This document shows, one piece after another, positions 26,313 through 53,236 of a stretch of 59,651 nucleotides of DNA. Made by a program: the position numbers and the translations under genes. The notes under the pieces were generated by a model. The model searched no databases and was not told where the DNA came from. It saw only the letters and a list, made by a program, of their open reading frames with translations. Location of the stretch: NCBI GenBank assembly GCA_013372925.1, contig JABXIV010000061.1:1-59651 (forward strand). The letters are read 5' to 3'. Source of the stretch: Alphaproteobacteria bacterium (GTDB lineage Bacteria > Pseudomonadota > Alphaproteobacteria > Sphingomonadales > Kordiimonadaceae). How positions within the stretch are numbered: the first letter of the stretch is position 1; the number at the start of each line of letters is the position of its first letter.

Positions 26313-26580
26313 CACTTTTCCTCAACGTTACTCCGCAAATTTGCGCAGTATTATTTCAATATTACACCAATTTGAGTAATTTCATAAGCCCATGTATAAT
26401 CCGGCTTTATGCACCCAGGCAAGCCATAACGGCCTTTTTCCGCCAATTCCACAGTTTCTTGTGTAACATTTTTTGCTAAGCCTTACATAAGATCATTTCT
26501 TGTCTTTCGCTTCAGCTCGGCTTTCTTTACATCTTATCAAGACATTCGAGTATCACCCCCCCTTACTTTTGAGAGTGCAA

Positions 26581-27246
26581 ATGTCCCAGTTTTTAGCCAA
26601 CAAAATCATATTTGATCTGGATGGTACACTGATTGATTCAGCGCCAGACCTGCATGCTGCAACAAATCACGTCCTCAAAAGTATTGGGCGAGACACAGTG
26701 TCCCTTGATCAGGTGCGCCATATGGTTGGCTATGGGGCGCTCAGACTTATCGAACTGGGCCTTGAAGCAACCGGAGACCCTGAAGAGTACTCGGCGGAAG
26801 ACCTGCGCCCTACGTTCCTTCAATATTATGGTGACAATATTACAACCCACACCACACTTTTTGATGGGGCCCTGGACATGATGACCCATTTCAAAAATGA
26901 AGGCATTGAGCTAGGGCTCTGTACCAACAAGCCAATTGCGCTAACCGAGCCCATACTCGACAATCTTGGCATCAGAGAGCTGTTTTCTGCCGTCAGTGGT
27001 GGCGACAGTTTTGATTTTAAAAAGCCTGACCCCCGCCACATCTTTGAAACGGCGAGAAAAATGACCGGCGAAGGCCCAGCTCTTATGGTCGGTGACAGCC
27101 GCCCGGATATCGAAGCCGCCAAGGCCGCCAATATGCCGGCGATCGCAGTCAGCTTCGGCTATTCACAAATGCCCATTCAAGACCTGAGTCCAGATGTAAT
27201 AATTGACCATTTGTCTGATTTGAAGGGGCTGATCAAGCGCGCCTGA
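26581..27246 (+). CDS. gph: HAD hydrolase, phosphoglycolate phosphatase-like
   Basis: FDLDGTLIDS, CTNK, KKPDP and MVGDS..D motifs. Confidence 0.85.
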   Translation: MSQFLANKIIFDLDGTLIDSAPDLHAATNHVLKSIGRDTVSLDQVRHMVGYGALRLIELGLEATGDPEEYSAEDLRPTFLQYYGDNITTHTTLFDGALDMMTHFKNEGIELGLCTNKPIALTEPILDNLGIRELFSAVSGGDSFDFKKPDPRHIFETARKMTGEGPALMVGDSRPDIEAAKAANMPAIAVSFGYSQMPIQDLSPDVIIDHLSDLKGLIKRA

Positions 27247-28237
27247 TGGCTTTATGCCAAAGGTGCCTAGCCAATTGCCGTACCGGCATCCGCATATAGT
27301 GACTTCGGATATATAACAGAATTTCAGCCAACCTGCGATATCGCCTATTCTCTGCCAGCTGTCGAATAAGAAAGCGCAATCGAAGGGAAGGTAAGCCCTG
27401 GCCTTCATCCGCAATATCAAGCCCGAAATATTGCCGAAGCACCCAAAGAGCAGCGGCCACAGGCCCATCTGAACGCACCTCTATTGCCCGAGCGTATAGG
27501 GCCTGCCCTTCCGCTTTTGAAAGGTCTTTATAAAGATAGTAGAGTTCAAGAAAGCTGCGAGCTGGAGTTTCCATCGCCCCATCACCAAAAACATGAATAG
27601 CAGAATGAATAAATCGATCCGTGGGCGAAAGCACTCGGAGGGCTTCTCCTTCAATCGCTCTAGCTTCTTTGATCATTTCAAGGTGATCTGGGTTCAACCT
27701 TGATGTTCTGGGTAGTAATCGATGGTGTATGTCAATAATCGTGCGACGGACGGCATGCCTAAGTGGTGGCAACTCATGCATCCAGCGCCTGTAGTAGCGT
27801 TGATCATATTCATTTTCTGTTGTTGCTTCGGGTTGCCATCCCGCTTCCTTTAACAAAGCTTCCACTTGTTCAAGGTCACTCTCTTCCACAAGAATGTCGA
27901 TATCACTTACACGTCTACCAACGCCCGCAAAAAGATGTTCCGCAACATAGGCACTACCCTTCAACAAGATAGGTTCAACGCCCGTGCCCAAAAGTGCTCT
28001 TTTAATCCGGTCTGTCTCATAAGTGAGCATGCGCCTGTCATAGCTGCTGCGAAGTTTCGCATTCTCACAAATATCAGAAAGCTTGCTCCCGGGCTCCGCA
28101 TCAATCACGGCGGCCACTTGCCCCATAATATGCTCACGCTGTGCCCAAGCGATAAATCCAGACAGTGTTTCAGTATTAGCCGGTAACGGCAAATCACCTA
28201 CTGCGAATGCCAAAAATTCTTGAATTTCCTGTTTCAT
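27233..28237 (-). CDS. Nucleotidyltransferase family protein (NTP_transf_5-like) of the HprK-related cassette
   Basis: LLKG, RRVSDIDILV and IDIHHRL motifs. Start overlaps the kinase stop by 4 nt. Confidence 0.85.
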   Translation of the reverse strand: MKQEIQEFLAFAVGDLPLPANTETLSGFIAWAQREHIMGQVAAVIDAEPGSKLSDICENAKLRSSYDRRMLTYETDRIKRALLGTGVEPILLKGSAYVAEHLFAGVGRRVSDIDILVEESDLEQVEALLKEAGWQPEATTENEYDQRYYRRWMHELPPLRHAVRRTIIDIHHRLLPRTSRLNPDHLEMIKEARAIEGEALRVLSPTDRFIHSAIHVFGDGAMETPARSFLELYYLYKDLSKAEGQALYARAIEVRSDGPVAAALWVLRQYFGLDIADEGQGLPSLRLRFLIRQLAENRRYRRLAEILLYIRSHYMRMPVRQLARHLWHKAIRRA

Positions 28238-29163
28238 GACGGCTCCCTATGAAGAAGGTCATGAACAATTTCCAAGCTATCTTCTGTGTTGCCGTATTTA
28301 ATTTCAAATGCCTGAACACCATCAAGCATAACCATAAGCGCCGTAAAAGCGGGCTCACCTATTACCTGATAGTTCGGCGAGCTAGCTATTAGCTGCATAG
28401 CAGCATCCGCCAAATCAATCTGAGTAATCTGAGGGGCTGCTCCCTCTACAAACTCAGGGAACAAAATGATGCTCGCTGAGGCTGGCTGCCCCGCAGCGGC
28501 CACATCTGAAGCCCGTATACGCCGATAAGCAATATTGCCCTTGGGTGTGTCAGTGAACGTCGCGGACACATTTTCTGAACCTGCAAAGGCTTTAACGACA
28601 TCAATCGCTTGGTTCTTGAGAGAAACCGGTCTTGGATAAGCTTTTAATGTCGCGTCTTGGATATCAAGAATGGCAAACTCATCCGACAACAACCGGAAAC
28701 CATCTTCCATCAGTGCCGCAGTAAGCGTGCTTTTCCCGCCGCCAGACTTGGCCGAAATTATGAGGGCTTCACTACCCTTTGCGACAACGCCTGCATGAAA
28801 AATAGCAAACCGGAAACACTGCAGTGCAACATTCAGGTTTAGTCCCATCTCGAGCGCCAACGGTGATAATGCGGACGGTAGAGGTACGGCGGGAAAGTTA
28901 AAACCAGGATCAGGAACAATCTGCTTGCGAAAAAAACGCCTGTAGAGATTTGGGGGACGCACCGTCATGGAGAAGTCGCATAGCAACTCATTCCCAATTT
29001 CGACCTGCGCTTCCTGGTACATATCCAGGATAAATCGCTGCGTTAGCTCGTCACCTATATTCAGGCGCGTGGCAAAAGGTCCTAATTTCAAAGCCAAGCG
29101 TTTCTCAGAAAGCGCATTAAAAACAGACGCCTCCGGTAGGTCTTTCATAATAACGACGGTCAT
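28234..29163 (-). CDS. HprK-related kinase A
   Basis: HAG, Walker A AKSGGGKST, LLSDE, PRPVSLKN and TPKG motifs. Confidence 0.88.
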   Translation of the reverse strand: MTVVIMKDLPEASVFNALSEKRLALKLGPFATRLNIGDELTQRFILDMYQEAQVEIGNELLCDFSMTVRPPNLYRRFFRKQIVPDPGFNFPAVPLPSALSPLALEMGLNLNVALQCFRFAIFHAGVVAKGSEALIISAKSGGGKSTLTAALMEDGFRLLSDEFAILDIQDATLKAYPRPVSLKNQAIDVVKAFAGSENVSATFTDTPKGNIAYRRIRASDVAAAGQPASASIILFPEFVEGAAPQITQIDLADAAMQLIASSPNYQVIGEPAFTALMVMLDGVQAFEIKYGNTEDSLEIVHDLLHREPS

Positions 29164-29462
29164 GGCCCTACTCGCTGAACGAGGCCAATATCATCCAACT
29201 CATCGAACAGGCGGCGTGCAACACCCCTTGGGCATTCTTCCGCAGGCACTTCAAGGAACATGTGAAACTCAGTCACAATGGTTCGGAGCGACTTTGGCCC
29301 TGCCGACAAATAATCGAGCATTGCCTTCGACACGAGATTGAAGATGTGTGTCGTACCTGAAAGTCGATTATAGACGAAACTTGTGTCGCCGACTTGGCGA
29401 CAGAGATAATGGTCCGGGTTGCTAACCCAGACCCAGTCTTCTTTATTAGGGCCTGCTGTCAC
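29160..29462 (-). CDS. PqqD/RRE-family peptide chaperone (HPr-rel-A system)
   Basis: 100 aa with VYNRLSGTTHIFN beta part and LFDELDDIGLV C-terminal helix. Overlaps the kinase start by 4 nt. Confidence 0.85.
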   Translation of the reverse strand: MTAGPNKEDWVWVSNPDHYLCRQVGDTSFVYNRLSGTTHIFNLVSKAMLDYLSAGPKSLRTIVTEFHMFLEVPAEECPRGVARRLFDELDDIGLVQRVGP

Positions 29463-29472
29463 CGCTTACAAA

Positions 29473-30264
29473 TTACTGCGTTTCCAGATAATTCAAAATT
29501 GACAGCAAACAGGAAATTCCGGGGAAACCACCATCATTTCCGTAAGTATCAAGATACTTGCCTGCCAAAAGGATATAGAGGCCGTTCTCGCCTTGAAGGT
29601 TCCATGAACCACTGCCATTCAGATAATCGGCTGGCGTGATCGTTGTATTACGGCTGATAACATAGACCTTATAACAATCGGTCCAGCCGCCACCGCCGCT
29701 GCCGCCATCGTCATCATCACCGTCGTCGTCACCACCACCGTGACCACCGCGCCAACCACCGCTGTAGCCGCCATCATCGTCGCCACGGCGGCTGCTACTA
29801 GTGCGCCAGTCGCTATCATCGTCATCACCGCTACCGCTGTGCCAGCCGCTATCATCGTCATCACCGCCGGAATCATCACCACCCCAACCGCCATGACCAC
29901 CATCATCATCGCCGGAATCGTCGTCCCCACCACCTGTAGAACAACCGTCGGGCCGATAGCGTTCAGGAACGGTCCCTTCACCAAAAACATAGTCGGCGTT
30001 CTGCTTGAAATCGTCTACATCTTTGGTTTTGTATTCGCCCTGCTTTTCCTGGATAGAGCCATCGCCAACCCAGGCTTTACCGTCTACATCAACGAGGATC
30101 GTCACTTTTTCGGGAATGACAAACGCACAATCCAGTGCGGAGTGGACAGGCTGGGTCGCTGACGCTTTTAGCGTCAACACCATTGGAACGCCCGCAGCGC
30201 CTAGCTTTAAAAGCTGGCGACGGCGTTCGATAAACCCCTTATCTTCATCTTTTTTGTCCGACAC
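29473..30264 (-). CDS. Twin-arginine-leader protein with a Gly/Asp-rich insert, putative substrate of the cassette
   Basis: GTG 30264 follows SD GGAGAAGG, giving 263 aa. Leader is ERRRQLLKLGAAGVPMVLTLKASA, followed by four Cys. Stop lies 10 nt before the PqqD gene. Confidence 0.8.
   Translation of the reverse strand: MSDKKDEDKGFIERRRQLLKLGAAGVPMVLTLKASATQPVHSALDCAFVIPEKVTILVDVDGKAWVGDGSIQEKQGEYKTKDVDDFKQNADYVFGEGTVPERYRPDGCSTGGGDDDSGDDDGGHGGWGGDDSGGDDDDSGWHSGSGDDDDSDWRTSSSRRGDDDGGYSGGWRGGHGGGDDDGDDDDGGSGGGGWTDCYKVYVISRNTTITPADYLNGSGSWNLQGENGLYILLAGKYLDTYGNDGGFPGISCLLSILNYLETQ
29677..29940 (-). repeat. Low-complexity imperfect repeats encoding eight GD(2-4) tracts in a Gly/Ser/Trp/His matrix
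   Basis: Plus-strand (tca/tcg)n and (ccg/cca)n runs, translating to GGGDDDSGDDDGGHGGWGGDDSGGDDDDSGWHSGSGDDDDSDW... Confidence 0.85.
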
Positions 30265-30314
30265 GCTGGAACCTTCTCCAAACCACAACGACCCACAATT
30301 GTGCAAAAATTTAA

Positions 30315-30330
30315 TTAAACCAAACTTAAC
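30315..30330. promoter_or_regulatory. CtrA consensus box upstream of the kinase cassette
   Basis: TTAA-ACCAAAC-TTAAC, an exact TTAA-N7-TTAAC match, 50 nt upstream of GTG 30264. Confidence 0.65.
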
Positions 30331-30405
30331 AGCGTTCCCAGAGAGCGGTCTAGCGTAAAAATGCCGCATGACCCCTATTTTCGTTAATCTCTGGCATTCG
30401 CAGCT

Positions 30406-30434
30406 CTGTAATATTTTATTCACAAAACTGCAAA
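30406..30434 (+). promoter_or_regulatory. Degenerate PHO box upstream of phoR
   Basis: CTGTAAT-attt-TATTCAC-aaaa-CTGCAAA, three half-sites at 11-bp period. Confidence 0.5.
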
Positions 30435-31802: not shown

Positions 31803-31804
31803 CA

Positions 31805-38074: not shown

Positions 38075-39973
38075 TCAGATATTGGCCAAGTTGGCATCCA
38101 GCTTGGCCAGAGTCCTATCCAGCATCAGGACGCACCACAAAGAAGCGTGGTGATCCCGCCTTGCAGCAAGATGCTCCTCCACCATCGCTGACAAGCCTGA
38201 CCGTGAGATCAAGCCTGTATCAAGCAAAACCTCACTTTTACATAACGCCCTTAACGTGGGTGCCATTTCGTCACGCATCCACTGCCCTGCGGGGATGTCA
38301 AAGCCTCTTTTTGGCCGATCGATCACTGCATCGGGTACAAATCCGCGAATAGCCTGCTTGAAAGCAGCCTTGCCCTCGCCATCAACAATACGGCTATCCG
38401 GGCTAAGGCGCATCCCCCATTCGAAAAACTTGTGATCCAAAAGTGGCACACGCACCTCAAGCGAATGTGCCATACTCGTTCGGTCCACTTTGGTAAGAAT
38501 ATCCCCAGGCAGATAAGTGTTGATATCGATATATTGGATCACCGAAAGCCCATGCGCGCCAGCAACTTCAGCTGCCAGTTCTTCAAACCTTTCATGAGGG
38601 TGATAGCCTGCCAATTTCTTCTTCATGACTTGAGATTGCAGGCGGGTTCTATCTCTATCAGGTGTTTTGGAGACAGATTGAAAATAAGCTTGGGCTGAAT
38701 TTCGCGCCAAGGCTTCTAGCGTAGATTTCGCACGGAAAACCTGTGGAGCCCAATCCATCTTCGGATACATTTTGCTCAGTGGACCAAATATCGCCCGGCG
38801 AAGCATAAGCGGTGCAGCACCACGAAGCTTTTCTTCCATCATATGAAGACGGTAGCGGCGATAACCACCAAAAAGCTCGTCCCCACCATCGCCGGAAAGC
38901 GCAACCTTAACATTTTCTCGCGCCAGTGCGCAGACCTTGTACGTAGGCAAGGCTGACATATCCGCAAACGGCTCGTCAAAAATGGAGGGCATCAGGTCCA
39001 GCAGGCTACTGTCGTGCGCTGATATAAGACGCATACGGTGATGGGTGTTAAAATGGTCCGCCACCATCTGGGCATAACCGCTTTCGTCATATTCTGGCAC
39101 ATCGGAGCCTACCGCGCATGTTTCAACCGGCGAGTTGCTATTGCGGCTCATTAAACCAACCACGGTGCTTGAATCCAGCCCACCAGAAAGAAAAGCGCCC
39201 AGAGGTACGTCCGCTATCATGCGTAGCTTCACGGCCTCTTCCAGCCGATCAAGAAGGGCTTGATGGTCTTCCTCGACGACTGGCGGTGTTACCAAATCAA
39301 GATTCCAATAGCGCTGAAGGTCTTGCCTACCCGTATCCTTTGCAAGCGTGAGAGTGTGGGCAGGTGGCAGTTTTTCAATACCGTTCAGGATTGACTTCGG
39401 ATCAGGTACATATCCGAGGGCCAAAAAATCTTCCATCGCATCCAGCCTCAAGGACCGAACGAATCCAGGGTATTCGAGCAAAGCCTTCATTTCGGATGCG
39501 AAAAGAAAGGTGCCATCCGGCATGTTGGCATAATAAAGCGGCTTTATACCCAGCCTGTCTCGCGCCAGAAATAATATCCCCTTACGATTATCCCATATGG
39601 CGAAGGCAAACATACCTCGTAAGCGCGAAACACACTCTGTGCCCCATTCAAGATATGAGACCAGCAGTACTTCCGTATCAGAACTCGTCTTGAACACATG
39701 TCCAAGAGCCTCAAGCTCGCGGCGCAAATGTTGGAAATTATAAATTTCCCCATTATACGTCAGGACGACGCCCTCGTCCTGACTAAGCATTGGCTGCAGG
39801 CCGCCTTCGACATCAATAATGCTTAAACGGCGGTGCCCCAGGGCAACGTGATCACTCCAGAAGAAACCTTCATCATCAGGGCCCCGATGCTGGATACTAT
39901 CTGTCATACGCCGGAGAGCAACTTGATCTACCCTAGTGCTTGACGTCGTCACGATCCCGCTTATTCCGCACAT
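38075..39973 (-). CDS. asnB: AsnB-family glutamine amidotransferase, XrtA/PEP-CTERM-associated
   Basis: MCGISG Ntn N-terminus, HRGPD, NGEIYN, LSGGLDSS, SGDGGDE and KVDRTSMAHSLEVRVP. Overlaps the xrtA end. Confidence 0.9.
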   Translation of the reverse strand: MCGISGIVTTSSTRVDQVALRRMTDSIQHRGPDDEGFFWSDHVALGHRRLSIIDVEGGLQPMLSQDEGVVLTYNGEIYNFQHLRRELEALGHVFKTSSDTEVLLVSYLEWGTECVSRLRGMFAFAIWDNRKGILFLARDRLGIKPLYYANMPDGTFLFASEMKALLEYPGFVRSLRLDAMEDFLALGYVPDPKSILNGIEKLPPAHTLTLAKDTGRQDLQRYWNLDLVTPPVVEEDHQALLDRLEEAVKLRMIADVPLGAFLSGGLDSSTVVGLMSRNSNSPVETCAVGSDVPEYDESGYAQMVADHFNTHHRMRLISAHDSSLLDLMPSIFDEPFADMSALPTYKVCALARENVKVALSGDGGDELFGGYRRYRLHMMEEKLRGAAPLMLRRAIFGPLSKMYPKMDWAPQVFRAKSTLEALARNSAQAYFQSVSKTPDRDRTRLQSQVMKKKLAGYHPHERFEELAAEVAGAHGLSVIQYIDINTYLPGDILTKVDRTSMAHSLEVRVPLLDHKFFEWGMRLSPDSRIVDGEGKAAFKQAIRGFVPDAVIDRPKRGFDIPAGQWMRDEMAPTLRALCKSEVLLDTGLISRSGLSAMVEEHLAARRDHHASLWCVLMLDRTLAKLDANLANI

Positions 39974-41499
39974 AGGCCTTGGTCCCAGCTTTGCTCGCCA
40001 GAAGGCCACAAAAGTGCCTCCGGTGGATGTGATACAAAAAATCTATTCAAAATAATCCGGGCATCTTCAATAGTCGATGTTAAATCAGTCGCTATTACAA
40101 GGGATTGCCCTATTGCCGGCCTGCCGCTTAGACGCAGCCAAGCCAAATGTAGTTTCGCATCGATGTTGTGCGCATAATGCTTGCCACCGATCACATAGGT
40201 TCGCCACATAAGTCGACGCTCTCCCTGTCGCCAAATCACACTCTCCTCAAAGGCTGCCTTACCCACGTCTACTGGATGTGTATCAATACCCCCAAGTAGC
40301 TGCCATCCATCGTCCAACAACAATGAGGTCGCCCCAACAAGCCGGTGCCCGAGCCTGTCAGGCCAATACAAGAATGTTTTACCCATAACAGTGGCTGCAT
40401 CCTCACGGAAATACCAAGCTTGCCTTAGATCAGCCTCTGCTTCATGTATCCACCGGGTAGCAACATCCGGCATTAGCTGCCGGAAACCACATTCCATACA
40501 TTTTGGGGGAGCCAAGGTCGGCGTAAGACACATCGGCACCGACAGATTACTTCCTGGCAGCCACATTCCTGCCAGAGCTGGTAGAAAGCCGGCAGCCAAC
40601 AGTATCAATGCTGGTGTTGAACTGTTTTGTCGTTCTACTGCCAACTTGCACGAGTTGGGTTCCTGCTCGTTCTCCCTATCGCTGAAGCGATAAGCGCCCG
40701 CGATCAGGAGAATCAAGATAAAGCTCAGGAAACCCCAGCCATAGACAATGTGGTCTACCCCCTTTGCGAAGGACGCGTCAGTCATTTCCCCCAAAAGCAA
40801 TGTCCCATATACGCGCACCGCATTGAAGAAAATGGGTACAATAACCGCAGCGAGCATCATCACGGATCGTCGCTTCCATGAAGAAAATGTGAGGTGGCAC
40901 AAAAGAACACCCAACACCAAACTACTGTTCAGAAACTTCACACCTGCACAGGCCCGGGCGATTTGATAGTAGCCGCTGGAAAGCTTTATCAGCACCCCAT
41001 CCGCTTCAAACTCCATCCCGGACATACCAAGAGCACCAATGACCATCTTTGCCGTGAGGTTCTGTAGCGGTTCAACCAACTGCTGTCCGAGAGGTATCGC
41101 CGCAAAAAGAAAAAGCATTGGGAACAAGATTAGTCTGTAGGCTCGCGGGCCCAGGCACCCAACCACGATGAATTGGATCGCGGTCACCAAGGAAAAGTGC
41201 TGCAAAATGCTTGCCTCGGCAGCACCACCGATCAACCATAGCGCACTTGCGACCAATATTCCCAAGGCAGCAGGCCACCAAAACGAAAGACCACTGTCAG
41301 TCACACGCTCCCATGACCGAAACATAAGCCATAAAGAGACAACAGGAACCCACACCCCGTGGTTATATATATCGGCTTTCCAAACAAGGTCAGCCAATTG
41401 TGCAACACTCTCGAACCATGAAACAAACAGTACCAAGAGAAGAAAAAGCAGCGCTATATAATTACGTCTGTTTCTAAAAACTGCTGCTAACCCGGTCAT
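39961..41499 (-). CDS. xrtA: Exosortase A with C-terminal EpsI-like region
   Basis: Multi-TM protein with HG, LQ..TA, ACAG (Cys), NAVR (Arg) and VDHIVYGW (His) motifs. Confidence 0.9.
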   Translation of the reverse strand: MTGLAAVFRNRRNYIALLFLLLVLFVSWFESVAQLADLVWKADIYNHGVWVPVVSLWLMFRSWERVTDSGLSFWWPAALGILVASALWLIGGAAEASILQHFSLVTAIQFIVVGCLGPRAYRLILFPMLFLFAAIPLGQQLVEPLQNLTAKMVIGALGMSGMEFEADGVLIKLSSGYYQIARACAGVKFLNSSLVLGVLLCHLTFSSWKRRSVMMLAAVIVPIFFNAVRVYGTLLLGEMTDASFAKGVDHIVYGWGFLSFILILLIAGAYRFSDRENEQEPNSCKLAVERQNSSTPALILLAAGFLPALAGMWLPGSNLSVPMCLTPTLAPPKCMECGFRQLMPDVATRWIHEAEADLRQAWYFREDAATVMGKTFLYWPDRLGHRLVGATSLLLDDGWQLLGGIDTHPVDVGKAAFEESVIWRQGERRLMWRTYVIGGKHYAHNIDAKLHLAWLRLSGRPAIGQSLVIATDLTSTIEDARIILNRFFVSHPPEALLWPSGEQSWDQGLCAE

Positions 41500-42701
41500 T
41501 TCACAAGCTCGCTTATAAACCCATCGAACTCTGAGAGACTATGCTGCCACTTGTAATGTTTCAGGATATGCATACGTGCTGCTTCACCAATTGCCGAAGC
41601 CTTGCCAGCGTCTGCCATCAAACTAATCAGAAGGTCCGCAAATTCCTTCGGCTCCTCTGCCACAAGCACATGCTTTCCAATTTGGGCCTCAATTCCTTCT
41701 TTGGCAGCCGCTGTCGCTATTACAGGCTTGGCCATTGCCATGCCCTCGAGAACTTTGTTCTGTATGCCCCGGGCAGTTCTCAGGGGCGCTACAACGACAC
41801 TGGCAGCTGCGATTGCCTCAGCCATATCGTCCACATAGCCAGTTACATCTACGCCACCTGTTTGAGCCAACTGCTTCACCCGTTTCGGGGTTGGCCCTCC
41901 GGCTATTTTAAAGCAGGCTTCAGGAATACGGGATCTGACGATCGGCCAAACATTTTCGACAAACCACTCAGCAGCTTCGATGTTGGGTAAATAGTCCATC
42001 GCACCAGTGAAAATCACGCTGTTCGGCGCCGGGTCAACGCCCGTAAAGCGCTCAGGGTTGAAATGGTCGACATCTACACCGTTATTAAGGTGCATGATCT
42101 TGCCATAACCACCCCCAACGATACGCTGCTTGAACAACCGGGCCTCGTCGGCGCTTACAAAAGTGGTGATAGAAGCCTGGCGAGCGATTACTGCTTCCGC
42201 TTCGGCTAGAACTTTTGCCTCACGAGCATACAGCCACGAAAGAGGAAAAACTGACTGTTTGCTATATGCTTCCCATTTTGCGCTATCGACATCTACAAGG
42301 TCTGCGATAACGGGAAAATCGGGCCGCTCCCGCCCAATCAAAGGACCTACTGCCCCCGAAAACAAAAAGATCAGATCAATCTCTTCCCGCTCCAACAGCC
42401 CCTTAACATAGCGTCTGAGTTTGCTTTTCGGATATGCAGCGAAGGACAAAGGCTCATTCCAGACAAGCCCCATCATGGCGCGCAATTTCAACATAAACTT
42501 ACTGACATAAGTGAAGCATATTGATGTGCTTCTCTGTCTAAGGAAATCTACATACTGCAGATCAGCCTTGCTATCGACATAAAAACCAAGATGCACATCG
42601 TGTTTTTGCAGCAAGTGCTCGAGAAAATGCCAAGAACGTATCTTGTCGCCTTTATTTGGCGGATAAGGAATTCGGTGTGCAAGAAAAAGGATACGGGCCA
42701 T
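41496..42701 (-). CDS. GT4 glycosyltransferase, XrtA-associated (TIGR03087-like)
   Basis: LAHRIPYPPNKGDKIRS, VDVDSAKW, FTGAMDYLPN and ARGIQNKVLE motifs. Confidence 0.9.
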   Translation of the reverse strand: MARILFLAHRIPYPPNKGDKIRSWHFLEHLLQKHDVHLGFYVDSKADLQYVDFLRQRSTSICFTYVSKFMLKLRAMMGLVWNEPLSFAAYPKSKLRRYVKGLLEREEIDLIFLFSGAVGPLIGRERPDFPVIADLVDVDSAKWEAYSKQSVFPLSWLYAREAKVLAEAEAVIARQASITTFVSADEARLFKQRIVGGGYGKIMHLNNGVDVDHFNPERFTGVDPAPNSVIFTGAMDYLPNIEAAEWFVENVWPIVRSRIPEACFKIAGGPTPKRVKQLAQTGGVDVTGYVDDMAEAIAAASVVVAPLRTARGIQNKVLEGMAMAKPVIATAAAKEGIEAQIGKHVLVAEEPKEFADLLISLMADAGKASAIGEAARMHILKHYKWQHSLSEFDGFISELVK

Positions 42702-42705
42702 CAAC

Positions 42706-43752
42706 CTACCCCAGGTGCCTTGAGATCGGTGGCCCGAGAAAGTTAGCGATGGGCAGGGGCATCCTTTTCCATACCGCTATCATCATTTGGTACTTCTTAT
42801 TTTGGGGTGAGATATCCGGAATTGTAGCACCCTCCGCGCGACGATATTGATACTCGAGAAGTGTCGGCTCAAATCCCCAGTTTTTCTTGAATTTGTAGGG
42901 CCCGCTGCCAACCTTTGACCGACCGAAATCAAAATACTTCCTGCCCGTGGCCACCGCGCGCTGCATCAATTCGAAATACATAAAGTCATGTGCGCCGAGC
43001 TCCCTAGCCCCGGCACCTGTCCCGGCATAATATGGCAGCACCGTATCGGTGGTATAGAAACTCATGAGGCCCGCAACCGGGTTCCCTGTTGCCTCACGCA
43101 CGATCTGTATAGATACGTCGCTGCCAAACACGTCTACGAAAGCCTCAAACAAGCGTCTTGGAAAAACCGGCGTCCCTAACCCCCGGACTGACCTTGCGTA
43201 TAGGAAATAAAACTCTTTTATACTTCCATTCCAGTCACTTATGAGATTATTTTTAAGTGATTTACGAACGACGGCCCGTTGCTTTCTCGGAATTTCAAGC
43301 AAGATATCCTGCTCTGCTTTCCCAACAATTTCGCGAATGAAAGTGGCAGACTTGTTTCGCTCTACATACCAGTCAGCGTCACCATCATGCCTTGCCTTTT
43401 TTGTCCTGTATTCCAATACCTCTGCGCCGGCATCAAGCGCGAGGCGCCACGCTTCCTCCTCAAGGGCCTCATAGCTGCCAGTGTCATAAGCAAGCGGCCC
43501 GCCATAAACCCCGAACATACTGGAAACAGCCAATGTACCGAACAAAACGCTTTTACGAATTGTCAGCGGCATTACACCAACAACCGCCCCATCCTGCTCC
43601 GCGATCAAAAACGGACAATGATGACGAGCGCCCTGCTCCACAACGCGTTTCCAACCTGCCTTATGGCAGAAGGTACCCTCCGGATGGCTTGCTACGAAAG
43701 TGTCCCATGCTATGGAATTGGCATCATTCAACTGCCTGACCTTCACAGTCAT
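42706..43752 (-). CDS. FemAB-related protein, XrtA-associated
   Basis: IPRKQRAVVRK, LGTPVF, LPYY, FDFGRSK and FKKNWGF motifs. Confidence 0.9.
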   Translation of the reverse strand: MTVKVRQLNDANSIAWDTFVASHPEGTFCHKAGWKRVVEQGARHHCPFLIAEQDGAVVGVMPLTIRKSVLFGTLAVSSMFGVYGGPLAYDTGSYEALEEEAWRLALDAGAEVLEYRTKKARHDGDADWYVERNKSATFIREIVGKAEQDILLEIPRKQRAVVRKSLKNNLISDWNGSIKEFYFLYARSVRGLGTPVFPRRLFEAFVDVFGSDVSIQIVREATGNPVAGLMSFYTTDTVLPYYAGTGAGARELGAHDFMYFELMQRAVATGRKYFDFGRSKVGSGPYKFKKNWGFEPTLLEYQYRRAEGATIPDISPQNKKYQMMIAVWKRMPLPIANFLGPPISRHLG

Positions 43753-44675
43753 TTGCCCTCTCCCTCGAGGCTACCACGTAGTAGAGGTGCAAACACGTCG
43801 GTCATACTACCCCATTTGCGGCTGTCGCACAGCTTTCCTACCTTTGCTGCCATCCTTCCCTGCCCGGTATAGTGCCTGAACCGAGAGAGCGCCGGAGCAT
43901 CGGCCCTGAAGGGCTGTTCAGGGTCCATTTCCCATGGGTGCATATAAAATACACCAGGCACTTTGTTTTGTTTGATGCTACGATCCAGAAGGCCCTTACC
44001 AATTGCATAAGGCAGCAAACGGAAATATCCGCCACCAGATGCGGGCCAACGTCTTCCTAAGCTTCGGCAGACGCTCAGTGGTACTTCCAGCACACGACCG
44101 GCCCCAATCGGCCAGAAGGGCCTTGTCGGCGCATCAGGCATACCGTAGTGATCAGTTTTCAAAGGATACACGCTCGAGGAATAGCGAAACCCAAGTTTCT
44201 CAAGGCTATCATATACCCACCAGGTTTCTGGCGTTAAGGAGAAGCTTGGTGCACGGTACCCTATAACAGAGACACCTGATGCATCCTCTATTTTCTGCTT
44301 GGCAATACGAACATCTTCAAAAAAGTTATCTGAAGACATTGTAAACAGGCGTTTATGGTCGCTGCCGTGGCAAGCAAGTTCATGGCCTGCGGCATGAATC
44401 TCCCGCAGCAACTCTGGGGACCTCTCGGCAACCCACCCAAGGCAGAAGAATGTGCCTGTTACTCCATGTTTTGTCAGCAATTCGAGAACTTTGTGGGTTT
44501 GATAGACCACCCGGCTCTCAAGATCAGACCAGTCTTCTCGACAAATGGTGTTTTCGAAGGCACCTACCTGAAACCATTCTTCAACATCAACGGTGAATAC
44601 AGAACGTTCACCGAAATCAAAGCCAGCCTCGACCGGCTCTGCAGAAGAAAGAACGCTGAGCTCCTTACTTCTCAT
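43749..44675 (-). CDS. Polysaccharide deacetylase, XrtA-associated
   Basis: TVDVEEWFQV, HELACHG, GYRAPSFS, GGGYFRL and HPWE.D motifs. Confidence 0.9.
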   Translation of the reverse strand: MRSKELSVLSSAEPVEAGFDFGERSVFTVDVEEWFQVGAFENTICREDWSDLESRVVYQTHKVLELLTKHGVTGTFFCLGWVAERSPELLREIHAAGHELACHGSDHKRLFTMSSDNFFEDVRIAKQKIEDASGVSVIGYRAPSFSLTPETWWVYDSLEKLGFRYSSSVYPLKTDHYGMPDAPTRPFWPIGAGRVLEVPLSVCRSLGRRWPASGGGYFRLLPYAIGKGLLDRSIKQNKVPGVFYMHPWEMDPEQPFRADAPALSRFRHYTGQGRMAAKVGKLCDSRKWGSMTDVFAPLLRGSLEGEGK

Positions 44676-45744
44676 CCTTTGAACCGCCACCAGCCAGTTG
44701 GGCCATCAGGTTAGTCAATTGCTTCAAGGTTTCATCCTGAGACTTCATCATGGTCTCAAGCTGATTGAGGCGATTTTCCATTTCTTCAGAGCCTTTGCCT
44801 GAAGCCTTGGACTTGCCACCGTCTTTTCCTTCGCTTGGTTGCCCAACCTTTTCAAGCGGCAACGAAGGATCGTTTTGCAGATTAACAGGCTGAGACCGAG
44901 GCATCGCCGAAGATGTCGGTGTTACTTGGCGCGTATCGCTGGCCATGTCGGCAATAACGGCAGCAACTGTATCCGCATCAATTGTGTGAATCTCTTCCAA
45001 TGAGCCATAAAGCAGAATGCGCGAACACAGTGTGTTCAGGCGGCGTGGCACGCCGGCACTATGCTGGTAAATGGCTTCTACCGCTTCAGCAGTGAAACAT
45101 GGGTCATTGTCCCAGCCAACAAGCCGCAAACGGTGCTCGATATAACCTGCCAGCTCTTCCTCTTCCATTGGGTCAAGGTGATGTGTCGCAATAACGCGCT
45201 GACGCAATTGCTCAAGCTCAGGCGCAGCAAAAATGCGTTCTCTGAATTCAGGCTGGCCTACAAGAAAGCTCTGTAGAAGCGCTTTGTCACCTTCCTGGAA
45301 GTTTGAAAGCATACGCATTTCTTCAAGCGCAGCATTTGAAAGGTTCTGAGCTTCGTCGACAACCAAGAGCGCCCGCCGCCCCATTCGGAATTGTTCCCGC
45401 AAGTATTTCTCAAGCCTTGCAAGCAGCTGCCCCTTGTCCTCAGCTTGCGCATCAAGCCCAAAAGCTGCAACAACACTACGTAACAAATCTTCAGCACTGA
45501 GCTGTGTGCTAACAATCATTGCAGCAATAAATTCGTTGCGATCCAACGTTTCGAAAAGATGTCGTACGAGCGTAGTCTTACCTGTTCCAATGTCACCCGT
45601 GACAATGATAAAACCCTCGCCTTGGTTCAAACCATAGGTAAGGTAAGCCATCGCCTTTTTGTGAGTGCGTGAACTAAAATAAAATCGAGGGTCTGGCGTT
45701 AACTGGAAGGGCCGCCCTTGGAGATTATAAAAACTTTCGTACAT
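44665..45744 (-). CDS. ExeA-like AAA ATPase, XrtA-associated
   Basis: MYESFY...PFQLTPDP, GDIGTGKTT, VDEAQNL, GQPE and GVPRRLN motifs. Confidence 0.9.
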   Translation of the reverse strand: MYESFYNLQGRPFQLTPDPRFYFSSRTHKKAMAYLTYGLNQGEGFIIVTGDIGTGKTTLVRHLFETLDRNEFIAAMIVSTQLSAEDLLRSVVAAFGLDAQAEDKGQLLARLEKYLREQFRMGRRALLVVDEAQNLSNAALEEMRMLSNFQEGDKALLQSFLVGQPEFRERIFAAPELEQLRQRVIATHHLDPMEEEELAGYIEHRLRLVGWDNDPCFTAEAVEAIYQHSAGVPRRLNTLCSRILLYGSLEEIHTIDADTVAAVIADMASDTRQVTPTSSAMPRSQPVNLQNDPSLPLEKVGQPSEGKDGGKSKASGKGSEEMENRLNQLETMMKSQDETLKQLTNLMAQLAGGGSKDEK

Positions 45745-45750
45745 ACCGCT

Positions 45751-47232
45751 CTAAAATGTCCCTCTTAGGTACAGGGTCAAAGCATTTTCCATCAAATCTG
45801 CACCCTGCTCATTAGACTGGCGTTGACTGTGACTAAACATCGCTGAAAACCTAAAGTAGCGTGACAACCGCTTTGACCAATCCAAGCTCCCCACAAAGTA
45901 ATTATCTACTCGAATATTGTCCTCAAATCTACTGCGACGATAGCTGATTGTACCAGATAAGTCAGTGTTTTTATTCACTTTCCGTTTAACACCCGTTGAT
46001 ACTCCCCATGAAGATGCTTGTCCGGAACCATCGTCAAAGGTTCTCCATTCCATGTTACCGTTTACATAAACCTGGGTTCTTTTGTGCCTCCATGTAAGTA
46101 CGGCACTACTATTCTGGCGTCGAAAATCGACATCAGACAGCGAAAAACTTGGATCAGTTTCATCAATCGGTAGCCCCTGACTATCGATAATTCCTTGATT
46201 GTCATCAAATTGATAGGATTGCAGATTATCGTTCAAAACGATGGCGTTGGAGGTCAGTGTATCCGTATAGCTCGCTACAAGATCAAATCTGACAGAGAAG
46301 AAATACTGTAGCCTTGCGTACCATTTACTACGGTTGCCTTCCTGACCAGTCTTCACCGTCAGGTCCAACTTACGTCCTGGCGTGAACCTAAAACCAACAT
46401 CCCAAGACCGACCATCGACAGCCAACTCGGTGGACTGGAAGTCATTTCTGGCAAACCCATAGGAGCCAAGCAAAGCAAAATGCCTGTTAAATTTTAGCGT
46501 AAGCTCTCCACTTACCCGCTCATCCTTGAAGTCATTTACATTCAGGCTTCTGCGTGTGCGTTGACTGCTCGCGGCGACCCTCCACTCAAGGTTATTAAAC
46601 CTGGCTCCAGAGCCAATCGACGCTCTGAATTCATGGGTCTGTGTATCGGAGAAATTGGTCGTAAGAGTTTCGTCCGCAAGGTTGTCTGCGGGACTAAGTG
46701 TCAAGCCGTACCTGTAGCTAAAACGCCAATCTGCCACATTGCGAACTGTGCCCTTAAGAATGGCACTGCCGGTGTAATTCTGAACCAAACGCCGATTGGT
46801 GCTTTTGTTTGCAATGCTTTTCGACAAGCTGCCACCACGATCAAGAAAGACCTGCCTTAAGCTTGCGCGACTATTCAACGTAAGATGATCTTTCCAGGGC
46901 TCCATATCAAAGGTACCAAAAAGATTGTGCCGCCCCTCAGTGGAACCGTCTGACAAGAACTTCAAATAATCATAAGAATAATCAAGAGCACCTCGCAATG
47001 TGCGACCTTCTACACGTGCATTCAAGCCTGGGGACACATTCAAAACCGCATCAAACTTGCGATCACTCTCTGAAAGAAGAGAATTGTCAGAAAACGCTAA
47101 TTTGGCTTCTGCTCTTGGATCAATCCAGACGTGTTGGGCATAAACAGGACGCCCTTCGACTTTTAGCCAAATAGACGCAAAGCCAAGCGCAGCCATCCAA
47201 GCCTGCCGTTTTGTAATGGAGAAAGCCCCCAC
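45751..47232 (-). CDS. Outer-membrane beta-barrel, PEP-CTERM-associated (TIGR03016-like)
   Basis: Signal-like N-terminus, amphipathic strands and C-terminal Phe (LYLRGTF). Canonical position between the kinase and the ATPase. Confidence 0.78.
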   Translation of the reverse strand: MGAFSITKRQAWMAALGFASIWLKVEGRPVYAQHVWIDPRAEAKLAFSDNSLLSESDRKFDAVLNVSPGLNARVEGRTLRGALDYSYDYLKFLSDGSTEGRHNLFGTFDMEPWKDHLTLNSRASLRQVFLDRGGSLSKSIANKSTNRRLVQNYTGSAILKGTVRNVADWRFSYRYGLTLSPADNLADETLTTNFSDTQTHEFRASIGSGARFNNLEWRVAASSQRTRRSLNVNDFKDERVSGELTLKFNRHFALLGSYGFARNDFQSTELAVDGRSWDVGFRFTPGRKLDLTVKTGQEGNRSKWYARLQYFFSVRFDLVASYTDTLTSNAIVLNDNLQSYQFDDNQGIIDSQGLPIDETDPSFSLSDVDFRRQNSSAVLTWRHKRTQVYVNGNMEWRTFDDGSGQASSWGVSTGVKRKVNKNTDLSGTISYRRSRFEDNIRVDNYFVGSLDWSKRLSRYFRFSAMFSHSQRQSNEQGADLMENALTLYLRGTF

Positions 47233-47243
47233 TCAGCGTACCC

Positions 47244-48410
47244 CTATCGCCCGCCGTATCCATAATAGGACGCGAATTTCTTGTTGCTACCGCTATAGCG
47301 TGTCTTGTTCAGCAGCAGATTAATATGCTCGCACGCACTTATCATGCTGAGACTTTCCTTGATCTGAGGTTCGGTTGTTTTCTCTGCCTCAATAACGAAA
47401 ACTGTTTGCCCCATGTATAGCGCCAAAACAGAAGCCGCAGAACTGGCCAGAACCGGCGGCGAGTCAAAAATAACCAAGCGGTCGGGATACCGTGTACCAA
47501 TCTCGCTAACGATCTTCTCCATCCGCTCGCTCGCAAGCAATTCAGTCGTCAGGTTGTGCTGACGACCTGCCGGCAACAGCACCAAATTTGGAATGTTCGT
47601 ACGGATCAGGCAGTCGCCAATTTCGATTTCATCATCAGCAACCACGTCCATCAACCCGCGACCGCCGCTAACGCCAAGCCGATTCAAAACCTCAGGCTTG
47701 GAAAAGTCGGCATCGATGAGCAAAACGGTCGTGTCCTGTTCTGTGGCAATCGACAATGCCAGATTGATGGCGCAAAAGGACTTGCCCTCACCAGGGTTGG
47801 AACTGGTAACCAGCACTACGTTACCCTTGTCTACTTTTTTGTCCTTGCCGAAGGCATTGAGAAGGATCGAACGCTTAATGATCCGAAACTCTTCCGACAT
47901 CAGGTTCGGTGGCATGTCAGGCGTGATGTAACCTGCTTCCCTCAGGGCCACCAAATCGATTTCCTGTTGCTTCTTCTTGCCACCTTTTGACTTGGTGGCT
48001 TTGCCCACTACTTTCGGCGCGGACGGGGCTTCAACCATTGGCGCAGGTTTGGTTGCTGGCTTGAGGAGCTCCGGCGCCGACTCAGCCATATCCGCAAGCT
48101 TGTCGGCAGTCCCTGGCTGGCCAATACCAACGCTTTTTTTCGGAGCGGCAGAGGCAACGGCTTCCTGGTTAGCTGCTTTTTCCTCAGGCGAAAGAGGCTG
48201 ACCGATTCCCCGAAAAGACTTGGGTTTGTCACTGATGGCGTCAGGATTCAAAGATGATGGATCTCTAGGCTGATCTGTTGCCTCTCCAATCGCCCCTATT
48301 GCAGAGGTTTTGCCTACGCTGGCTCCGGTTTTCTCAGCAGCCCTTTCAACCAAAGACCCCTCGGTCTTTTTCTTTTCCTGCTTCTGTGCTGCACGCTCGA
48401 TCAGATCCAT
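47244..48410 (-). CDS. BY-kinase (tyrosine autokinase), XrtA-associated
   Basis: EEFRIIKR, PGEGKSF, LLIDAD and FDSPP motifs, with C-terminal Tyr cluster SYYGY. Confidence 0.9.
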   Translation of the reverse strand: MDLIERAAQKQEKKKTEGSLVERAAEKTGASVGKTSAIGAIGEATDQPRDPSSLNPDAISDKPKSFRGIGQPLSPEEKAANQEAVASAAPKKSVGIGQPGTADKLADMAESAPELLKPATKPAPMVEAPSAPKVVGKATKSKGGKKKQQEIDLVALREAGYITPDMPPNLMSEEFRIIKRSILLNAFGKDKKVDKGNVVLVTSSNPGEGKSFCAINLALSIATEQDTTVLLIDADFSKPEVLNRLGVSGGRGLMDVVADDEIEIGDCLIRTNIPNLVLLPAGRQHNLTTELLASERMEKIVSEIGTRYPDRLVIFDSPPVLASSAASVLALYMGQTVFVIEAEKTTEPQIKESLSMISACEHINLLLNKTRYSGSNKKFASYYGYGGR

Positions 48411-48426
48411 TAAACTTTACCTACTC

Positions 48427-50058
48427 TTACCCAACCGTTGGTGCGCCGAAGATATCGAACGCTAATAGAGAAACAAAAACAATTAACAGCAGCAGGACGC
48501 CGCCCGCGAAAGAGAGTAGCTCGATACTTCTCTGCCTATTTTCTTCTTCAGACATAGATTTCGAAACATTCCCCAGAATTGGAAGGTCGAAATGAGCCTT
48601 CAGTTGATCCACTGTGATCACAACCGGCCGCAATTGCGACAAAACAAGCGCAACAGAGAGACCCGCGATTAGTGCACCAACAAAGCCGCCGGCAAAGAAG
48701 AGAAGCCTCGGCGGACCACTGGGGCGCTGCGGTGTGACAGGTTCTTCAACGACACGGAGCGACATCGCTTCATCCGTTGCCTCTACATCCGCTTTCAGGT
48801 CAAAGTCCTGTTTCTGTTGTACAAATTCATTATATTGTTGCCTCGTGGACAGATAGTCCCGCTTTAGAGCGCTTTCCTGCGCTTCAATTTCAGGCACCCT
48901 TTTCGCCTTGTCTTCCATTTCTGTAACAAGTTTGCGCTGATCACTTTCCCGTTGTTTGAGTGTTTCAAGCTCAGTTCGGGTTTGAATGATCTGCAGCATT
49001 AGCTGCTCATAAAGGCGGTTCGGCGTCTCAGTCGTAAGGTTTGATGTCTTGCCTGCCTCGGCTGATCCCTGCAACTCAGCCGCCAAGGCGTCCTGTTTAT
49101 CCTGAAGTTCGCTCTTCAGACTTTCGATTTGCCGTGTCACATTTACGACATCTGGATGGCGATCCTTCAACCCCAACACCTTGAGTTGATCATATTTTTT
49201 CTCAAGTTCTGAAATGCGTTCTTCAAGCGGATCTTGATCGCCATTTCTAGTACCAGAGCGACTGGATCTCGCTTCTCTGATAGTAGCAGGGACATTCTGA
49301 ATTTGTTGCTGCAACGTATCCAGCGTTACTTGCGCCTCTGCAATCAGGTTACTTGTCTTGCGGCGCTCCGCTTTCGCTGTATCAAGCCTTTGTACAAAGC
49401 TTCCTGCTGCTCCAAGGAACTCAATATTGTCCTGCTGGAACTTCGCAACGGCAGTCTCCGCGTCAGACAGCTTCCTCGCGTATTCTTCGATTTTCTGATC
49501 TATGAATTCGCGGGCATTGTCTGATTTCTGGCGACCATCCTCGCCATTTCGTTCAATAAAGAAGGCCAGCAAACTGGAAACAACACGCTTAGCTACTTCT
49601 GCGCGCTGCCGATCGCTTAACCGATCATCGTCAATCTCATACTGGATGCGGAACATGCCCTCATCCAGCGAAAAAATGCGAATATCACGAGTCAATTGGC
49701 CAACAAGCGCGTCGATGTCGTTATTTGAGCGCGCGATTTGATCCAGATAATCTGTGCGCTGGATGATCTTTTCCAGGTTAGCCCTCGTCACGACAGTGCG
49801 CCGCACGATTTCAACCTTACGCATAAGGTCTACATTCACGCCCATGCGGCGCGCCATGCTTGGCAAATAGGTTTCTGTATCAACGAAGATTTGCGCTGTT
49901 GCTTCGTATTTGTATGGCATTGTCGCCACAAGAGCCCAGCTTAACAGGCTTACAACCCATGTGGTTGCAAGCATATACCAACGCTTTCGCCAAATGCCAT
50001 AAGCAATAGCCTTAAATTGTTGATATAACTCATGTAAACCGGACTGTGGCACAGCCAT
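48427..50058 (-). CDS. Polysaccharide chain-length determinant/co-polymerase, XrtA-associated
   Basis: N-terminal TM, long coiled coil, HPDV, P..PSGPPR and C-terminal TMs. Confidence 0.9.
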   Translation of the reverse strand: MAVPQSGLHELYQQFKAIAYGIWRKRWYMLATTWVVSLLSWALVATMPYKYEATAQIFVDTETYLPSMARRMGVNVDLMRKVEIVRRTVVTRANLEKIIQRTDYLDQIARSNNDIDALVGQLTRDIRIFSLDEGMFRIQYEIDDDRLSDRQRAEVAKRVVSSLLAFFIERNGEDGRQKSDNAREFIDQKIEEYARKLSDAETAVAKFQQDNIEFLGAAGSFVQRLDTAKAERRKTSNLIAEAQVTLDTLQQQIQNVPATIREARSSRSGTRNGDQDPLEERISELEKKYDQLKVLGLKDRHPDVVNVTRQIESLKSELQDKQDALAAELQGSAEAGKTSNLTTETPNRLYEQLMLQIIQTRTELETLKQRESDQRKLVTEMEDKAKRVPEIEAQESALKRDYLSTRQQYNEFVQQKQDFDLKADVEATDEAMSLRVVEEPVTPQRPSGPPRLLFFAGGFVGALIAGLSVALVLSQLRPVVITVDQLKAHFDLPILGNVSKSMSEEENRQRSIELLSFAGGVLLLLIVFVSLLAFDIFGAPTVG

Positions 50059-50106
50059 ATATTATACTCCTACACTAGCATCCTGCCAGAAACTTCAAAC
50101 ATTATA

Positions 50107-50745
50107 CTACAGAATGCTCTCTGGGATAATCAGTACATCCCCCGGCAAAATTTTAACGTTCGCCTCAATCTCCCCGTCCTTCAAAAGGGATTCAATTTTG
50201 AGGCCATATTCTTTTTGTTCACCATCCTCAAAACGGACCAAAGTCGCTCGGTCTCCGGCAGCGAATTCCGTCAAGCCACCAACCTGGATCATGACATCCA
50301 ATAGCGTCATGTTCGCGCGGTAAGGAATGGCCTGCGGACTTGCTGCCTCACCCACCACACGAACCTGCTGTGAAAAAGGTCCAAAGAAATTCTGTACAAC
50401 GACGGTGACGATTGGCTGAGTAATGTATACGCCCAGTTGTTCTTCAATATCACGAGCCAACGCACTTGGCGTTTTACCCGTCGCAGGAAGATCTTCCACG
50501 AGAGGCATAGAGAGGCGGCCATCCGGGCGTACGGTAACCAAAACAGAAAGCTCTGGATTACGCCAGACATGAATACTGAGCCCATCTCCTGGTCCAATTA
50601 GATAGTTGGGCCCAGGCCCCTCGCCTGGCGACACGAAGGGGGCTGGTGGCAGCTTGCCCTTCCCGTATCCAGAGCATGCCGCTAGTAAAAGCATAGTCAC
50701 AGCCATCAGGAGAAGTTGCAGTATCGTCTTAGAAAATTGCGCCAC
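50107..50745 (-). CDS. Polysaccharide export lipoprotein (Wza-like), XrtA-associated
   Basis: Lipobox LAAC, then YLIGPGD, VRPDG and GGLTEFA motifs. Confidence 0.92.
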   Translation of the reverse strand: MAQFSKTILQLLLMAVTMLLLAACSGYGKGKLPPAPFVSPGEGPGPNYLIGPGDGLSIHVWRNPELSVLVTVRPDGRLSMPLVEDLPATGKTPSALARDIEEQLGVYITQPIVTVVVQNFFGPFSQQVRVVGEAASPQAIPYRANMTLLDVMIQVGGLTEFAAGDRATLVRFEDGEQKEYGLKIESLLKDGEIEANVKILPGDVLIIPESIL

Positions 50746-50866
50746 AGATTTCTCTTTCCAAAGTCACAAAAACAGGCAGAAAAAGTGCTAATTTCTGCCA
50801 ATATGCCAAGTTGCAAAAAAATAAATCAAGCGTTTAATTAAAGACTTAGCTTAATTTTAGCTAAAT

Positions 50867-51016
50867 TTATTTTTCTTTCACATCACCTTTTTTAGGCAAC
50901 CTGAATTTACCGTCTCGCTGTTGCCCCATAAAATCTGCAAAGTCATCATTTACCAAAGCCCAAAAAATCAGATAGGCAACGAACAAACAAAAACCAACAA
51001 AATATAATGTTTCCAT
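50867..51016 (-). CDS. Small single-TM membrane protein (49 aa)
   Basis: METLYFVGFCLFVAYLIFWALVNDD... starts 7 nt after the galE stop and has a charged tail. Confidence 0.6.
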   Translation of the reverse strand: METLYFVGFCLFVAYLIFWALVNDDFADFMGQQRDGKFRLPKKGDVKEK

Positions 51017-51023
51017 ATAGTTA

Positions 51024-52022: not shown

Positions 52023-52025
52023 TAC

Positions 52026-53213: not shown

Positions 53214-53236
53214 AATATTGGGCCAGAATTTAAGTG

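Follow-up and report, generated by a model that had tools for sequence, protein, structure and literature searches.

The four-gene unit and its partner family

We analyzed a 59,651-nucleotide stretch of DNA from an alphaproteobacterium of the family Kordiimonadaceae (contig JABXIV010000061.1 of assembly GCA_013372925.1), called the window below, in which a unit of four co-oriented genes lies on the minus strand at 27233..30264. All four open reading frames (ORFs) were confirmed. The unit is a catalogued but unexplained cassette, the HPr-rel-A cassette, which includes a recognition element for peptides made on ribosomes and modified after translation (RiPPs), plus one further gene, gene 1.

29473..30264, minus strand: gene 1, 263 aa, an unannotated protein of a leader-defined family, likely the client and substrate of the cassette
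29160..29462, minus strand: gene 2, 100 aa, a PqqD-family RiPP recognition element (RRE), TIGR04353
28234..29163, minus strand: gene 3, 309 aa, an HprK-related kinase A, TIGR04352
27233..28237, minus strand: gene 4, 334 aa, a PF14907 nucleotidyltransferase (NTase) with a Pol-beta-like fold

Gene 1 starts with GTG, with GGAGAAGG upstream of the start codon, and its closest named homologues are Kordiimonas hypothetical proteins. A 10-nt gap separates genes 1 and 2, and the next two junctions are 4-nt overlaps, each ATGA; the tight coupling described in an original prediction, which a model had made from the DNA alone, is thus borne out by the ORF coordinates. Hidden Markov model searches, proposed there for all four proteins, placed gene 2 (37.6 bits; cut-off 35), gene 3 (228.4 bits; cut-off 200), and gene 4 (135.6 bits; cut-off 31.2) above the cut-offs of TIGR04353, TIGR04352, and PF14907, respectively, and left gene 1 without an NCBIfam or Pfam match at E<=0.1. 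The GC content of the unit resembles that of its flanks.

A profile built from 25 leaders of distant genomes picked only gene 1 among 56,971 six-frame pieces of its own genome (30.5 bits; runner-up, 11.6). A generic twin-arginine translocation (Tat) signal as the source of this conservation was rejected, since 12 other ORFs of the genome with a twin-arginine (RR) motif score at most 12.5 with the leader profile, against 34.1 for gene 1. Judged by these sequences, gene 1 founds a family with a family-specific leader, not a generic export signal. In a 50%-identity library the profile matches 1,546 clusters at E<=0.001, an upper figure from which ordinary Tat proteins were not filtered out.

Above the TIGR04352 cut-off, the kinase is found in all 24 genomes of the genus and in 34 of 41 relatives; from the phylum, 401 genomes were sampled, and 52 have it. 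The original prediction had proposed a survey for an RR-leader gene upstream of homologous cassettes, and such a gene is nearly always present. Among the first 30 loci, 29 have it, and the thirtieth ends at a contig end. A 44-leader profile (E<=1e-5) found its target in 48 of the 52 genomes with the kinase and in none of the 349 without it, where the best match had an E of 1.5e-4; without the 26 training genomes, the counts are 22/26 and 0/349. In each of the four kinase genomes that the profile missed, an adjacent, weaker copy was found, either with a second-round profile or by eye. Eighty further named loci were gathered, 77 of which had sufficient flank for the neighborhood survey. The leader gene lies upstream on the same strand in 69 of these 77 (60 at E<1e-3), or in 64 of 72 when five loci seen earlier are set aside; no match was found downstream or on the opposite strand in the 77, and a second-round profile brought back seven of the eight misses, one of them weakly (E 0.17). 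The RRE gene is present in 72 of the 77, and the NTase gene follows in 78 of the 80. There are also six genomes in which leader gene and kinase lie apart; here the RRE is beside the leader gene in four, beside the kinase in one, and near neither in one. Taken together, gene 1 very likely partners with the cassette.

Some genomes hold two leader genes. In one, a long and a short copy stand in tandem (L069:8663-10165); in another, two copies flank the RRE gene (L129:5686-7109); and in a third, a second leader and RRE pair lies on a separate contig (L120).

Leader, mature region, and enzymes

The following features were distinguished within gene 1.

30157..30264, minus strand: leader, residues 1-36, with RRQLLK (R15, R16), the uncharged LGAAGVPMVLTL, and KASA; predicted cut after A36
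30169..30186, minus strand: leader strand PMVLTL, residues 27-32, for which pairing with RRE strand 37-42 is predicted
29683..29940, minus strand: hypervariable Gly/Asp-rich loop, residues 109-194, with 32 Gly and 27 Asp+Glu in 86 aa and low pLDDT
29500..29514, minus strand: S251-C252-L-L-S255, an instance of the family-wide [ST]-x-x-x-S motif and the best candidate phospho-acceptor

The original prediction had gene 1 start with ERRRQLLK, followed by a hydrophobic stretch and ASA. All three elements are present, but ERRRQLLK occupies residues 13-20 and not the start; a 12-residue uncharged stretch follows it, and ASA lies at 34-36. RR followed by any residue and two hydrophobic ones is the Tat signal consensus, and it stands near the N terminus of 116 of 117 family members (RRQLLK at 15-20 in gene 1). 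In the 149 aligned library matches, RR is present in all, and the predicted -1 column is Ala in 136. The uncharged run is at least 13 residues long in 86 of 116 members. The genome has tatC, and the cassette contains no exporter or peptidase gene of its own.

Across 44 aligned leaders, R16 is invariant and R15 and T31 are nearly so; across 53 aligned RREs, W12, S35, T38, H39, G93, and L94 are nearly invariant. In the predicted leader-RRE complex, P27-L32 runs beside RRE residues 37-42, T31 meets T38/H39, and L18/L19 and R14-R16 pack against the RRE, which covers RRxLL. The complex scored 0.69 (runs 0.69, 0.76, and 0.67) against 0.00 for the best control, with at least 98% contact agreement between runs and a partner pLDDT of at least 69. 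The mark used for such scores is reached by 116 of 157 solved pairs and 2 of 215 mismatched pairs, counts that apply only approximately to a prediction made with our own alignments. The leader-PqqD structure prediction suggested earlier passed against its controls. On this model, it is quite likely that the RRE would take up PMVLTL as an added β-strand and pack on R14-R16 and L18/L19, hiding the export motif until the protein is modified. The top solved matches of the RRE profile are lasso B1 proteins, at weak scores (TfuB1, E 0.053; TbiB1, E 0.14). The leader Pro is kept in 77 of the 117 members.

For the mature region, 125 rows were reduced to 117 unique proteins by removal of 3 unanchored and 5 duplicate entries, and motif patterns were picked after inspection of the sequences. 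Of the 117, 114 have the pattern [ST]-x-x-x-S, located at either of two places; shuffles give 5.3. Type A (65 members, including gene 1 of the window) carries it as a C-terminal [ST]C-x-x-S, and type B (49 members) directly after the first Cys. The mature regions of the two groups are otherwise unrelated, yet they share this motif. S42, S251, C252, and S255 are invariant among 51 close homologues of gene 1, as are both motif serines among 12 type-B proteins. On the kinase tree, 2 changes of substrate type are needed against 31 in shuffles (92 loci; most same-genus loci omitted), a result not used as evidence of coevolution because kin share labels. By eye we noticed a further, third type of substrate, in which the C-terminal motif is S-A-[YWF]-x-S, free of Cys (P0098, P0107, P0113, P0118, P0152, P0163, and P0186).

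The number of cysteines is even in 63 of the 65 type-A members, and in those with only two, the pair is the first Cys and the motif Cys. A C46-C252 disulfide would place the motif beside the end of the leader. The original prediction mentions neither the serine motif nor the paired cysteines, nor the link to XrtA described below. In the gene 1 model, residues 45-110 and 190-262 are confidently folded around the disordered acidic loop. Loop 109-194 is absent from short homologues; it is hypervariable even within the genus, being His-, Lys/Gly-, or Asn/Gly-rich in some proteins and missing in others, and it could serve as a metal-ion binder or a displayed tether. Fold searches with the mature region gave no Foldseek match at E<=0.001, a best VIA Z of 3.0, and only hypothetical clusters in the Atlas; for a predicted structure, this absence of a match shows neither a new fold nor a known one. 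A lipoprotein reading of gene 1 was ruled out, with a lipobox ahead of the first Cys in 0 of the 117 members.

Both enzymes look active from their sequences. The motifs AKSGGGKST, LLSDE, LLKG, and SDID, listed as intact in the original prediction, were all found in the translated genes. Kinase residues H123, G143-K144, T146, and D161-E162 are invariant in 40 homologues and, in the alignment, fall on the catalytic His, P-loop, and Asp-Asp of the solved relatives, which are HPr protein kinases. In the NTase, K93-G94, D112, D114, and D169 are invariant in 35 homologues. Its model (pLDDT 91) is a Pol-beta-type NTase, with MenT1 as the top fold match (Z 13.0; root mean square deviation 2.9; 176 aligned; identity 14%); ANT(2'') (Z 11.0; root mean square deviation 3.6; 161 aligned) and TglT (Z 10.1) also match.

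Genomic context and proposed mechanism

The unit is placed between gph and the divergent phoR-pstSCAB-phoU-phoB genes (26500-38062), and only the latter lie between the cassette and a complete exopolysaccharide locus of the exosortase A (XrtA) type.

38075..57468, minus strand: complete XrtA/PEP-CTERM exopolysaccharide locus

Neighbors of the gph or phoR-pst kind are kept in 7 of 24 surveyed loci, and XrtA/PEP-CTERM genes lie within three genes of the cassette in 11 of them. XrtA is over its cut-off in 36 genomes, 25 of which have the kinase; in the other 27 kinase genomes it is below the cut-off, and XrtA-system neighbors were seen in the three examined. The stop of the NTase gene overlaps the end of the convergent gph gene by 14 nt (27233-27246), and the gph/phoR-pstSCAB-phoU-phoB placement recurs in several families of the order (L067, L070-L072, L112, L129, and L130). 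An S1 (HtrA-like) serine protease gene adjoins the cassette in 3 of the 24 loci (L066, L076, and L078).

The XrtA locus here includes prsT. No PrsK was found in this assembly or in four near-complete genomes of the genus, and by sequence the exosortase A system here apparently lacks this usual regulator. Of 97 loci outside the genus, 42 have a sigma-54-type site ahead of the leader gene, compared with 4 for the reverse strand and 2.5 in shuffles, and in Aquincola one PEP-CTERM gene is reported to be RpoN-dependent. We infer that the cassette is coregulated with the matrix system. Sigma-54 control of the unit in the window was rejected, since there is no such site here, nor in any of 20 same-genus loci (0/20), and PrsK was not found there. 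When the region upstream of the leader gene was crudely scanned for a Pho box, the count of matches reached no more than 10, with 9 here, and no convincing box was seen; the sigma-70 and terminator scan stayed at chance level. A TTAA-N7-TTAA palindrome, which we liken to a CtrA box, lies at 30315-30329, in the upstream region that gene 1 has in common with the divergent phoR and at a distance of 50 nt from gene 1. Of 21 same-genus loci, 9 have it upstream of their leader gene; the window has two such sites against 0.78 expected, which is not significant for the window alone.

In the mechanism that we propose, the RRE would grip the twin-arginine leader of gene 1, the kinase would phosphorylate a serine of the conserved [ST]-x-x-x-S, the NTase would likely attach a sugar or a nucleotide to that phosphate, and the modified protein would exit by Tat. 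We moderately favor this modify-then-export mechanism as a whole, with gene 1 as the substrate dedicated to the neighboring RRE, kinase, and NTase. By family analogy, serine phosphorylation or polyphosphorylation of gene 1 appears quite probable. From the shape of the leader and the paired cysteines, we consider it likely that the protein is exported by Tat, that the housekeeping signal peptidase cuts it after ASA, and that the disulfides C46-C252 and C108-C197 form. The NTase step on the gene 1 phosphate falls slightly on the doubtful side, and involvement in the XrtA exopolysaccharide matrix or in cell aggregation is an even call. Tentatively, and as less likely than not, we extend this to a fuller reading, a modification pathway common in Proteobacteria in which the RRE reads the Tat signal itself and keeps a folded, hypervariable protein in the cytoplasm until its conserved serine motif carries a phosphate-linked sugar or nucleotide, followed by release to Tat; the product would then be a phosphoglycoprotein component or signal of the XrtA exopolysaccharide matrix.

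Several observations weigh against the proposed mechanism. The genomes counted are kin, so the counts overstate independence. The strict motif is present in 112 of 140 library representatives, lower than the 114/117 of the family set; among the misses, many seem truncated or show, by eye, a variant without Cys, S-A-x-x-S. Since similar RRE-leader complexes have already been solved, the complex score may show likeness to those and not binding, and the proteins that served as its controls were unrelated ones rather than other Tat signals. The canonical RRE motif YxxP (Y/W-x-x-P) occurs in 0 of the 117 family members. The curated Tat models TIGR01409 and PF10518 match 7 and 6 of 44 leaders, respectively, all weakly, and neither matches the leader of gene 1. 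Its uncharged run of 12 residues (mean hydropathy 1.85) is one short of a 13-residue rule for the hydrophobic run of Tat signals. Finally, the conservation of RR could stem from RRE binding alone, because the model puts the arginines on the RRE.

As to the site, a variant inside our explanation has the kinase modify S42, just after the leader, in the manner of Ser3 in the linear polyphosphorylated peptides (LPP) of Bacillota. S42 is invariant in the 51 close homologues, all 65 type-A members have a serine before the first Cys, and LppK and BsfK are reported to modify residues three past the cut (PMC13381572 and PMC10368454). In type B, however, such a serine is found in 12 of 49 members, no better than shuffles (about one third), while [ST]-x-x-x-S spans both types. 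For this reason we have a slight preference for S255/S251 and regard S42 as a possible but rather doubtful site.

Alternatively, the RRE might be a signal-peptide chaperone only, and the substrate of kinase and NTase might be a small molecule or a sugar destined for the XrtA exopolysaccharide, which they would, for instance, first phosphorylate and then activate. This would fit the way the cassette tracks XrtA (25/36 XrtA genomes with the kinase; 11/24 loci with XrtA/PEP-CTERM nearby) and the resemblance of the NTase to ANT(2''), a small-molecule adenylyltransferase. It leaves unexplained, however, why mature regions that are otherwise unrelated conserve a serine motif, and the solved relatives of the kinase act on the protein HPr. 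In LPP and lasso clusters, the same enzyme families occur and the kinase modifies a peptide. We therefore consider this alternative unlikely.

Equally unlikely, in our view, is that gene 1 is phosphorylated but not exported by Tat, RR being purely a determinant for the RRE; the protein would then remain inside, stay anchored in the membrane through a leader that is not cleaved, or take Sec or a different route out. The failure of the Tat models to recognize the leader, its short uncharged run, and the burial of RRxLL in the RRE all speak for this. Against it stand the conserved hydrophobic run with an Ala-x-Ala-like end (Ala in 136/149 at the predicted -1), the even cysteine counts, which point to an oxidizing compartment, and the lack of an exporter or peptidase in the cassette. 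Finally, a toxin-antitoxin pair, with an NTase toxin silenced by phosphorylation as in MenT3/TglT with TakA and genes 1 and 2 as passengers, matches the fold hits to MenT1 (Z 13.0) and TglT (Z 10.1) but is very improbable, given an identity of only 14% that ties with general Pol-beta NTases, a single-copy unit present in 24/24 same-genus genomes with its gph/phoR position kept across the order, and a leader gene that accompanies the kinase even when unlinked.

The modify-then-export mechanism would matter in several ways. The cassette kinase, which 52 of the 401 genomes sampled from the phylum carry, has so far been without a named substrate; with a substrate family, an RRE-binding strand, and a candidate phosphosite named, the orphan cassette becomes a one-plasmid experiment. 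If the mechanism is true, a single leader would both recruit the enzymes and direct export, and the reach of RiPP tailoring would extend to folded secreted proteins. The fuller reading, if true, would join the leader logic of RiPPs and Tat proofreading with a new kind of protein phosphoglycosylation in bacteria. The link to XrtA is relevant to floc and biofilm formation.

Comparison with known systems

Genes 2 and 3 both pass the curated cut-offs of the HPr-rel-A system (TIGR04353 and TIGR04352), while no model of the catalogue covers gene 1. To our knowledge, the catalogue entry names no substrate or function. A full-text literature search for the names of the system returned no papers, and no account of the unit was found in the full-text literature, including term look-ups in the RRE-Finder paper (PMC7470986) and the daptide paper (PMC10036551), with subscription papers and bioRxiv supplements outside reach.

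The closest known system is LPP, a Bacillota pathway (lppAKBSDN) described by Popov et al. (2026; PMC13381572). LppK, listed under TIGR04352, polyphosphorylates Ser3 of a linear precursor, and LppN is a PF14907 protein; these two assignments strengthen the analogy to kinase and NTase peptide tailoring drawn in the original prediction. Deletion of lppN had no effect, which speaks against our NTase step. Both systems unite a discrete RRE, a TIGR04352 kinase, and a PF14907 NTase in one cluster. They also share a precursor with a conserved N terminus and a variable remainder (35-200 aa), a PxVL leader strand, the lack of a cyclase, and a position in polysaccharide loci, where the LPP clusters are located. 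The β-strand binding mode predicted here is described in the same text for LppB and lasso B1 proteins; in our model, the leucines of the Tat motif occupy the usual place of Tyr/Trp.

The differences from LPP are equally clear. The unit here is proteobacterial, and its leader is a twin-arginine hydrophobic one instead of YxxPxVLxHQxIxFET. The archaeal-type signal peptidase I (LppS) is absent from the cassette and flanks in the window, and no LppS-type peptidase was named among 139 flanking ORFs of 24 loci (best five families per ORF). There is no MsbA-like ABC exporter here; one lies several kilobases off in 1 of the 24 loci. The mature gene 1 protein is a predicted folded, cysteine-paired domain with [ST]-x-x-x-S as candidate site. 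The main text of the LPP paper mentions neither Proteobacteria, Tat, nor signal peptides (PMC13381572).

Phosphorylated and phosphoglycosylated lasso peptides (paeninodin, pseudomycoidin, and Bsf) likewise combine an RRE, an HPr-kinase homologue, and a nucleotidyltransferase. Their linear precursors are reported to be phosphorylated on Ser, the pseudomycoidin phosphate then gaining hexoses (PMC8498205), and the RRE BsfB1 to raise phosphorylation by BsfK (PMC10368454). In contrast to these, neither the cassette nor its own genome (assembly 81% complete) has a B2 leader protease (PF13471), the unit has no lasso cyclase, and the gene 1 protein is much longer than a lasso core could be. A nearby asparagine-synthase-like gene was rejected as a lasso cyclase, with 851 bits for TIGR03108 against 251 for the cyclase model (cut-off 525).

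A functional parallel is offered by Tat proofreading chaperones of the TorD/DmsD type, which are encoded together with one client and bind its twin-arginine signal until cytoplasmic maturation ends. Here, too, a small co-encoded protein is predicted to hold the client's twin-arginine signal; the binder, however, has an RRE fold, and maturation would be a covalent modification and not cofactor insertion.

The unit thus would work like the LPP and phosphorylated lasso systems but belongs to neither, since a dedicated peptidase, an ABC exporter, YxxP, a cyclase, and B2 are all missing. It would offer a second setting for the role of PF14907 enzymes, which the LPP and Bsf studies left open.

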